A DNA stretch of 63,878 nt, counting the filler, from Porpidia crustulata (taxonomy: Eukaryota), in NCBI GenBank assembly GCA_964255105.1. It is 2 parts of 2 records of this genome, joined end to end, with 100 filler letters (N's around TTAATTAATTAA, not from the genome) between each part and the next. Parts side by side here need not be neighbours in the genome. Positions count along the whole stretch, not along the records: positions 1 to 31,944 come from CAXUWE010000015.1; 1 more part is not named here. One strand, written 5' to 3'. The translations under genes were made by a program, and so were the position numbers. This document shows positions 1,874 to 2,335 of this stretch, piece by piece; position 1 is the stretch's first letter, and each line of letters starts with the position of its first letter. The notes beneath the pieces are model-generated. The model did not search any database. It worked only from the letters and a program-made list of their open reading frames with translations, and was not told where the DNA came from.

Positions 1874-2335
1874 CTATACTGAACCGTTCATCTTGTCTTT
1901 AGGAAAGTTGATCGAGCTCTTGACGAAAGGCACTCTAAGCCCGCTCTTGACGCTCAAGATCTGTGCCTTGTCCCAATCCCAGACCTTGCCTACCGTAAAG
2001 GGATCGCGCTGAAGGAGATCAACGGCTCCCTTTCGATCAGCCGCCTGGAGTAGCACCCAGCTGCCACGCTCTATACCGTCATGATCATCACCATACATAG
2101 GGCCTTCATTCTCGGAATGTGTCAGTAATCGTCTCCCGAAAGGGACAATTCCTACTACCCCCGGCAAGCCAGGAATCTGACGCCTCTTCGACAAATCGTT
2201 CATGGGGGCTGATGAGAGTTAGAACGCAACGACGTCCCATGTTTTGATCAATGCTTACTCTGTGCAAGTTTCTCGGTTCACGGTACCATTTGGGCCATCA
2301 GGTAAGAGGAACAGGAATTCGAACTTTTGAGCCAT
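1874..2335 (-). CDS. YCII-related domain protein (3 exons)
   Basis: Spliced by eye: ATG 2335 MAQKFEFLFLLPDGPNGTVNRETCT, intron (gtaagc..ctaac..cag), DPHERFVEEASDSWLAG, intron (gtagta..ctgac..aag), GPMYGDDHDGIERGSWVLLQAADRKGAVDLLQRDPFTVGKVWDWDKAQILSVKSGLR... This fits the fungal YCII pattern (EFL...PD...R...H...GG...GS...DP(F/Y)...VWD). Confidence 0.75.

Follow-up and report, generated by a model that had tools for sequence, protein, structure and literature searches.

A three-exon YCII-family gene predicted within a ter-like cluster of Porpidia crustulata and its candidate role in late terrein chemistry

We analyzed a 63,878-nucleotide stretch of the Porpidia crustulata genome (GenBank assembly GCA_964255105.1; two parts joined end to end by 100 filler letters, positions 1 to 31,944 coming from CAXUWE010000015.1), referred to here as the window. 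It carries a cluster resembling the ter genes of terrein biosynthesis, and within that cluster, at 1874–2335 on the minus strand, lies what gene prediction indicates is a real, intact and easily missed three-exon gene, the product of which is a member of the YCII family. Sequence comparison assigns the protein to a tight, rare clade, apart from the generic fungal YCII proteins, that tends to accompany TerA/TerB (6-hydroxymellein) clusters but is not shown to be a constant member of them. By analogy with characterized relatives, we hold it to be about an even proposition that the gene encodes a small cofactor-free YCII-fold tailoring enzyme of a terrein-type pathway, with a role on a (hydro)quinone intermediate. 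Our literature search turned up no report of a YCII gene inside a ter-like cluster, and no paper was found there that links YCII genes to ter-type clusters. It is this setting that is new, whereas YCII genes in the non-reducing polyketide synthase (NR-PKS) clusters of fungi are already known.

Gene model and YCII family membership

Spliced as modeled, the gene gives a coding sequence of 357 nt that specifies 118 amino acids with no internal stops, whereas the same frame read without splicing runs into a stop after 26 codons. A preliminary description of this DNA, made from the sequence alone, had set the start and stop codons on the minus strand and proposed three exons, and the model agrees with it in both respects (Table 1); the introns measure 50 and 55 nt, the splice sites are canonical and the frame is intact. 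It had also remarked that the open reading frame (ORF) track captures the gene only in part, and indeed the track holds a 114-amino acid ORF at 1874–2218 made up of exon 3 and intron sequence. The motif NRETCTDPH, reported there as keeping the His of the YCII R...H motif, is present across the junction of exons 1 and 2 with that His in place. The N terminus encoded by exon 1 agrees with the homologues P0005, P0013 and P0016, and the junction at intron 2 (WLAGG/PMY) is the same as in P0005, an annotated protein of Aspergillus filifer that is also 118 amino acids long. Exon 3 supplies Gly56-Ser57-Trp58, Asp76-Pro-Phe, Trp84-Asp85 and the C-terminal tail.

Two other splice choices were considered for intron 2. 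A nearer acceptor AG at 2112–2111 shifts the frame and brings a stop at residue 43, and it was rejected. A second in-frame donor, GTAGGA at 2155, lies 3 nt past the GTAGTA at 2158 and moves the end of exon 2 to 2156; its use adds one Ser to give 119 amino acids, as in the Sticta homologue. Homologues of 118 and of 119 amino acids both exist, and the choice between the two donors is decidable by RNA alone. An ORF-type database protein (P0001) that is 99% identical to the window sequence reads through intron 2. A visual comparison with the window shows two residue differences in the stretch from the intron and one in exon 3, a small hint that intron 2 may be evolving faster.

For the fold, Pfam and dimer analyses we used the A. 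filifer orthologue P0005, with which the spliced window protein shares 69.5% identity (82/118), rather than the window protein itself. Against the Pfam YCII family (PF03795, gathering cut-off 24 bits), P0005 scored 24.8 bits, the subfamily members P0013, P0023, P0024 and P0016 scored 22.7, 22.6, 20.0 and 18.1 bits, respectively, and P0041, a sister sequence, scored 24.6 bits. The YCII call of the preliminary description, for which HMMER against Pfam had been named as the check, is thus just borne out for the orthologue, whereas window exon 3 alone gave 14.8 bits (E = 0.041). The unspliced ORF pieces 1877–2218 and 2106–2297 matched no Pfam family at E ≤ 0.01, and exon 1 alone matched none at E ≤ 10. 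Judged on Pfam alone, YCII membership is borderline.

The spliced window protein scored 175 and 96 bits against two local homologue profiles, A1 and A2, the latter comprising 57 sequences (7 full-length subfamily members and 50 representatives covering the full length, picked by eye from 150 listed). Searched against the Protein Data Bank (PDB), A2 matched five sequences at E ≤ 1, of which two were significant, namely HI0828/YciI (8.6e-12) and TftG (1.3e-11). An AlphaFold2 model of P0005 built with A2 (predicted local distance difference test (pLDDT) 90.3, predicted template modeling score 0.78) has the order beta-alpha-beta-beta-alpha-beta and a ferredoxin-like fold of the YciI/TftG type. Foldseek placed HI0828 and TftG at ranks 1–4 among PDB structures (E of 1.5e-7 to 3.4e-6), with template modeling (TM) scores of 0.76–0.85 on the target, root mean square deviations (r.m.s.d.) of 1.8–2.7 Å and 20–23% identity. 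The kinship with TftG through the YCII family that the preliminary description invoked is therefore borne out by the A2 profile and by the AlphaFold2/Foldseek match of P0005.

Residues of a putative active site are conserved throughout. Asp13, His28, Gly56, Asp76 and Trp84 are invariant in all 57 A2 sequences, and near-invariance extends to Glu6, Arg21, Gly42, Gly43, Ser57 and Asp85; none of these residues is missing from the window protein. In the HMMER alignment, D13, R21, H28 and D76-Pro-Phe of the family correspond to D9, R17, H24 and D75-Pro-Phe of TftG, an enzyme stated at second hand to require its conserved His-Asp dyad (PMC7641849, available in part). These positions suggest a catalytic-type site in which His28 would be backed by Asp13 and/or Asp76. 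In homodimer prediction, P0005 scored 0.86, as opposed to 0.27 for the best of three controls, and so passed a mark that 21 of 30 proteins with structures solved as pairs of one chain attain, as against none of 23 with single-chain structures; agreement between runs was at least 93% of contacts, with a partner pLDDT of at least 83. The candidate protein is thus probably homodimeric according to the models, but solved YCII dimers exist and the result may reflect memory of them, so that it is to be read as likeness and not as independent evidence.

A rare subfamily and its association with TerB

Exon 3 used as a query retrieved 26 proteins, every one of its 26 candidates passing E ≤ 1e-3, and a profile of five full-length members retrieved 39 proteins from 6556 candidates among 5.8 billion sequences. 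Seven of these 39 are full-length, including those of A. filifer, Sticta canariensis, Diploschistes diacapsis, Pyrenula ochraceoflavens, Bisporella sp. PMI_857 and Xylogone sp. PMI_703. Another 30 are ORF-type exon 3 pieces of 60–109 amino acids from contigs without eukaryotic gene models, and the remaining two are a weak match and a generic YCII protein from yeast (27% identity). Among 1.84 billion representatives at 50% identity, 324 matched at E ≤ 1e-3, 29 at 1e-10 and 1 at 1e-30.

In a tree of the 57 A2 sequences and the window protein, from which fragments were excluded, the eight subfamily rows fall on one side of a branch with support of 94/77, and together with P0041 they sit on a branch of length 0.93 with support of 100/99; the window protein is paired with P0005 (100/98). 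Phe9, Glu29, Trp58, Gly97 and Val100 distinguish the subfamily from the 49 other fungal YCII proteins. Glu29 adjoins the catalytic-type His28, and residues 58 and 92–104 lie within the predicted dimer interface. The window protein is 50–63% identical to subfamily members of other fungal classes (lichen-forming and Leotiomycete).

TerB is the 6-hydroxymellein synthase, and a search with the ketoreductase (KR) region of the window's terB-like gene, confined to longer proteins (>645 amino acids), gave 37 proteins at E ≤ 1e-40 out of 7257 candidates. Ranks 1–27 are taken by TerB-like proteins, the other 10 being full polyketide synthases or unrelated KR proteins. TerB orthologues come from 23 named species, with A. 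terreus, A. lentulus, Lachnum palmae and Periconia macrospinosa among them. Of the six named species in which a full-length YCII subfamily member occurs, four (A. filifer, Bisporella, Xylogone and P. ochraceoflavens) belong to these 23. Because TerB-type genes are rare among sequenced fungi, an overlap of four in six is unlikely to be due to chance. In P. ochraceoflavens, the YCII gene (Q9227_001191) and TerB (Q9227_001196) are both listed on a contig of 671,243 bp and five locus tags apart, a spacing matched in the window, where the terB-like gene comes fifth after the candidate. For Xylogone, both genes are listed on a contig of 5,548,043 bp.

Other parts of the distribution tell against a fixed partnership. 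The YCII gene and TerB are on different contigs in Bisporella (227,746 and 14,295 bp) and in A. filifer (32,289 and 37,663 bp), and no TerB match longer than 645 amino acids was found in S. canariensis or D. diacapsis, where the YCII genes are on contigs of about 39–40 kb and the Sticta gene is marked partial. An annotated subfamily member is missing in 19 of the 23 named species with TerB. The preliminary description had offered two possibilities, a lineage-specific addition or a small gene overlooked in other ter clusters. Taken together, the unannotated exon 3 pieces and the overlap with TerB lean toward a conserved, often unannotated subfamily rather than a lineage-specific addition, although no YCII gene figures in the published clusters of A. 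terreus and A. lentulus.

Two further observations concern the TerB proteins. The Pyrenula protein Q9227_001196 (P0205) has 774 amino acids with methyltransferase Pfam domains and no dehydratase (DH) domain, in contrast to the DH and KR domains of the remaining TerB orthologues; it is either a partial gene model or a protein with a different domain set. The terB-like KR region of the window is 74% identical to a protein from a Claussenomyces sp. metagenome-assembled genome and 59–62% identical to those of eight named Aspergillus species, including A. terreus. The window thus has a complete terrein-type cluster, terD, terE and terF included, that is not the one of A. terreus and may be from outside Aspergillus.

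Cluster setting and the divergent promoter

Genes of the cluster were assigned from the Pfam domains of 32 ORF translations of the window, so that homologues are named by family (Table 1). The ter-like cluster is complete at 330–31600 and has homologues of terH, terI, terC, terA, terB, terD, terF, terE and terG and a Zn2Cys6-like factor. Pfam places the candidate between the terH-like and terI-like genes, where the preliminary description had located it. This arrangement is unlike that of A. terreus, a point against the pathway role proposed below, because terH and terI share one bidirectional promoter there, without a CGG repeat (PMC4360782, in the portion available).

Table 1. Features of the candidate gene and the surrounding cluster; coordinates are positions in the window
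Feature	Position	Strand	Remarks
terH-like gene, NAD-dependent (nicotinamide adenine dinucleotide) epimerase/dehydratase family	507–1535	+	PF01370, E 1.5e-13; convergent with candidate
Candidate YCII gene	1874–2335	-	Three-exon model
Exon 3 and stop codon	1874–2103	-	Coding 2103–1877; residues 43/44–118; TAG 1876–1874
Intron 2	2104–2158	-	55 nt; GTAGTA...AAG; CTGAC branch site
Exon 2	2159–2208	-	D26–G43, including His28 and subfamily-specific Glu29
Intron 1	2209–2258	-	50 nt; GTAAGC...CAG; CTAAC branch site
Exon 1	2259–2335	-	ATG 2335–2333; residues 1–25 plus 2 nt, including Asp13 and Arg21
Divergent intergenic region, candidate/terI-like gene	2336–3450	.	1115 bp
TerR-type direct repeat TCGG-N5-CGG, TCGGCTTCGCGG	2659–2670	+	324 bp upstream of candidate ATG
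terI-like gene, glyoxalase/dioxygenase superfamily	3451–3936	+	PF00903, 28.7 bits
Probable Zn2Cys6 factor	about 4300–7000	+	Cys pattern by eye
terC-like flavin adenine dinucleotide (FAD) monooxygenase	7710–9128	+	Pfam
NR-PKS (SAT-KS-AT-PT-ACP-ACP-TE)	9758–16573	-	Pfam
terB-like DH-KR gene	17528–21131	+	Pfam; fifth gene after candidate
terD-like phenol-hydroxylase-type monooxygenase	22103–23662	+	Pfam
Kelch protein	24674–25735	-	Pfam
Multicopper oxidase	27812–29044	+	Pfam
Major facilitator superfamily (MFS) transporter	30030–31600	+	Pfam

The divergent region common to the candidate and the terI-like gene is as the preliminary description had it. The CGG-N5-CGG site that it reported there at 2659–2671 is present, but its exact span is 2660–2670, or 2659–2670 with the flanking T. 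This site, TCGGCTTCGCGG, fits the published TerR consensus CGGHHHBNCGG obtained with SCOPE and carries the 5' T of the high-affinity sites; its last spacer base (position 5) departs from TCGGHHWYHCGG, the consensus of those sites (both consensus sequences from PMC4360782, available in part). CGG-N5-CGG is not enriched in the window (14 observed, 15.67 expected), and the three copies of TCGGHHHBNCGG (1.73 expected) are within chance, three being reached in 22 of 100 shuffles. All three are nonetheless in the 5' intergenic regions of cluster genes, at 2659, at 7359 before the terC-like gene and at 26215 between the Kelch and oxidase genes. The region between the PKS and terB genes has no TCGG-N5-CGG site, which, like the chance-level count, weakens the promoter site as evidence. 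The placement of TerR-type sites upstream of cluster genes is suggestive, no more, and the candidate may be expressed and controlled by TerR.

Several side observations bear on the regulator and on the cluster itself. The heptamer CGGATAT occurs 15 times in the window (6.67 expected; 15 reached in 0 of 100 shuffles), including a tandem at 7360–7374 before the terC-like gene, 16722–16728 and 16999–17005 between the PKS and terB genes, 24807–24813, 26219–26225 between the Kelch and oxidase genes and ten more. It may be a preferred half-site of the cluster's Zn2Cys6 factor, but 9 of the 15 sites are outside the cluster, against that reading. Pfam was silent on the Zn2Cys6 domain in the ORF pieces 4304–4522 and 4506–4646, because the Cys pattern is divided over two ORF pieces (4304–4649), presumably by an intron. 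In-frame stops at 12287–12292 in the PKS gene and at 8499–8501 in the terC-like gene divide long ORFs while the frame continues, and short introns that preserve the phase are the simplest explanation for them. About 7 kb past the MFS gene (31600–38800) has no ORF of at least 150 amino acids and is probably the cluster border. Two ORFs with weak 2EXR-family matches follow at 38829–42893, and housekeeping genes (for a cullin, Nup192 and a Tel1-like kinase) lie past the cluster.

Candidate role and comparison with known YCII proteins

Published work on terrein, which we cite from the portions available, leaves room for a further protein. A January 2026 mini-review describes 11 ter genes, none of them YCII, and gives the functions of TerE, TerF, TerH and TerI as undetermined (PMC12848540). 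TerC carries out the oxidative decarboxylation of 6-hydroxymellein to a tetra-ol that autoxidizes to a quinone and dimerizes, and TerD hydroxylates the TerC product further (Kahlert 2021, PMC8453496). Expression of terA–F in A. oryzae gave no terrein, even with terG–J or with TerR and native promoters (PMC8453496). According to the same source, the C-9 hydroxyl has to be eliminated and no enzyme of the cluster does so, and TerC may need a further protein that is apparently outside the annotated clusters (PMC8453496). For the dehydrated triol, C9H10O3, Kahlert et al. give [M-H]- 165.0552 (PMC8453496). The statement of the preliminary description that ring contraction and late terrein chemistry are unsettled still applies in print, both in the 2026 review (PMC12848540) and in Kahlert 2021 (PMC8453496).

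Derived from the description by Kahlert, the TerC product would be a substituted benzene-1,2,4-triol with a 2-hydroxypropyl chain and hydroxyls ortho and para to each other, which would oxidize to a hydroxy-p-quinone. The dimeric candidate protein could bind this triol, or the hydroxy-p-quinone, as delivered by the TerC-like (and TerD-like) monooxygenases. With His28 acting as general base, assisted by Asp13 or Asp76, removal of a proton would give a keto/quinone-methide tautomer, which would lose the beta-hydroxyl at C-9 as water by beta-elimination to leave an E-propenyl side chain. The dehydrated compound would then pass on to TerD, TerE and TerF, and as a side effect the intermediate would be diverted from autoxidative dimerization. 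That the protein catalyzes this side-chain dehydration specifically is a tentative assignment, drawn by analogy; it is the likeliest single reaction, but we regard it as rather unlikely. The missing dehydration fits the published gap better than ring contraction does. The occurrence of the subfamily in Leotiomycetes and lichen fungi also fits a step common to terrein and its chlorinated relatives, and fits the terrein-specific ring contraction less.

The preliminary description had suggested the candidate as the missing late enzyme, with the ring contraction in view. On that reading the protein would catalyze or assist the six-to-five contraction, in which a hydroxyquinone tautomer might rearrange in the alpha-ketol or benzilic-acid manner, for example. 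What favors dehydration in fold, residues and context would serve this reaction as well, the contraction is unassigned in print, and an acid-base tautomerization precedes the rearrangement proposed by Kahlert et al. (PMC8453496, in the portion available). The same authors, however, favor the copper oxidase TerE for the rearrangement (PMC8453496), and deletion of terD, terE or terF already blocks terrein. Published relatives of the ter cluster in groups of the Leotiomycete and lichen type are without terD, terE and terF and have a different contraction route. Furthermore, we know of no YCII enzyme that rearranges a carbon skeleton. Nothing points to ring contraction in particular, and we consider it improbable. 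We consider it equally improbable that the candidate is a bystander, namely a general-purpose or decaying fungal YCII gene with no tie to the cluster beyond its location between two of the genes. Fungi commonly have YCII proteins (the 324 representatives above), the TerR-type sites do not exceed chance in number and TerB is on other contigs in Bisporella and A. filifer, as a bystander would allow. Against a bystander, the frame is intact, the splice sites are canonical and all family-invariant residues are kept; the protein belongs to a distinct clade (support of 100/99 with P0041 and 94/77 for the eight subfamily rows) and not to generic fungal YCII, and TerB is present in four of the six named host species, with the same five-gene spacing in Pyrenula.

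An accessory function has a somewhat better chance than either, albeit a limited one. Such a protein would bind or stabilize the autoxidizing triol or quinone, protect the producer or modulate output, and it would be dispensable like terH and terI. Several published observations that weigh against an essential enzyme would suit it, again as far as the sources were available: terrein intermediates readily autoxidize and dimerize (PMC8453496); the neighboring terH and terI are dispensable in A. terreus, their deletion only lowering the yield (PMC12848540); and deletions of YCII genes in A. nidulans shift the product spectrum in a manner that their authors interpret as regulatory (PMC10512232). 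A. terreus and A. lentulus, moreover, both make terrein from published clusters of 11 consecutive genes (consecutive gene models in A. lentulus, PMC10512231) in which no YCII gene is annotated. On the other side, all 57 A2 sequences and the window protein have the catalytic-type Asp, His and Asp, both YCII proteins of known activity, TftG and AmbK, are enzymes, and the 50–63% identity across fungal classes argues for a constrained, specific function. We retain the tailoring enzyme as the working assignment, with dehydration as its possible reaction.

A bolder proposal, which we consider quite doubtful, is that reconstitution with terA–F (with or without terG–J) failed for want of this YCII subfamily, an unannotated component that would work with TerC on the triol/hydroxyquinone intermediate in the C-9 elimination common to terrein and chlorinated cyclopentenone relatives. 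If so, an overlooked copy would exist in A. terreus and other producers, and a small, intron-split gene is easily missed by annotation. The candidate offers a concrete gene to add to terrein reconstitution experiments, whose late steps have been a standing question from the discovery of the cluster in 2014 onward. Were its chemistry assigned, it would be only the third member of the YCII family with such an assignment, after TftG and AmbK, and it could help to explain the YCII genes of tropolone and dba clusters, which are no better understood.

Among known systems, the closest parallel is TftG, the 5-chloro-2-hydroxyhydroquinone dehydrochlorinase of Burkholderia phenoliruptrix AC1100 (PDB 4LBH/4LBI/4LBP). 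The two have the YCII fold in common (TM of 0.81–0.85 and an r.m.s.d. of 1.8 Å over 95 columns for the P0005 model), the aligned Asp, Arg, His and Asp-Pro-Phe positions, a length of about 100 amino acids and a dimeric state, predicted here for the candidate. The TftG substrate is a benzene-1,2,4-triol, a class to which the TerC product also belongs by our reading of Kahlert, and the title of 4LBP as listed suggests a dihydroxybenzoquinone-type ligand in a TftG structure. TftG tautomerizes its chlorinated benzene-1,2,4-triol and eliminates chloride, in parallel with the proposed C-9 dehydration. The likeness has its limits. Identity is 23% in the structural alignment, TftG is bacterial, and the candidate is not its orthologue but part of a fungal clade of its own; TftG also expels a ring chlorine and not a side-chain hydroxyl. 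Unlike TftG, the fungal subfamily has Glu29 beside the His, as well as Trp58, and is extended at the C terminus by about 20 residues that fall within the predicted dimer interface. As an analogy for the candidate, we nevertheless find TftG sound. HI0828/YciI of Haemophilus influenzae (PDB 1MWQ) gave the best profile match (8.6e-12) and the best structural match (E of 1.5e-7, TM of 0.78), and its site is reportedly centered on His and Asp, going by the title of a 2005 paper by Willis et al. It differs in its 20–21% identity, in having no biosynthetic context and in having no known substrate.

Other YCII genes resemble the candidate in their setting. DbaC and AN7894 of the A. nidulans dba/tropolone cluster are small fungal YCII genes in NR-PKS clusters for oxidized aromatic polyketides, and deletion of either dbaC or AN7894 abolishes antibiotic C and raises sepedonin (PMC10512232, available in part). 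YCII is significantly syntenic with one NR-PKS clade (P = 8e-07), with dbaC as the example (Table 2 of PMC5635595, in the portion available), and tropolone clusters of the Hypoxylaceae hold a YCII-like gene (PMC8403587, available in part). DbaC and AN7894 differ from the candidate in their PKS clade and products, DHMBA and tropolones as opposed to 6-hydroxymellein and cyclopentenones, the comparison being by Pfam family and description only. A second precedent is AmbK of Sorangium cellulosum, whose YciI-family gene had gone unnoticed in the ambruticin cluster, within a gap of about 500 bp, and which proved to be the missing epoxide-opening cyclase (PMC12391302, as far as available). AmbK is bacterial and its chemistry is that of an epoxide hydrolase/cyclase, and it is likened to the candidate by description only, not by sequence; it was, like the candidate, a short YciI-family gene missed in the annotation of a polyketide cluster.

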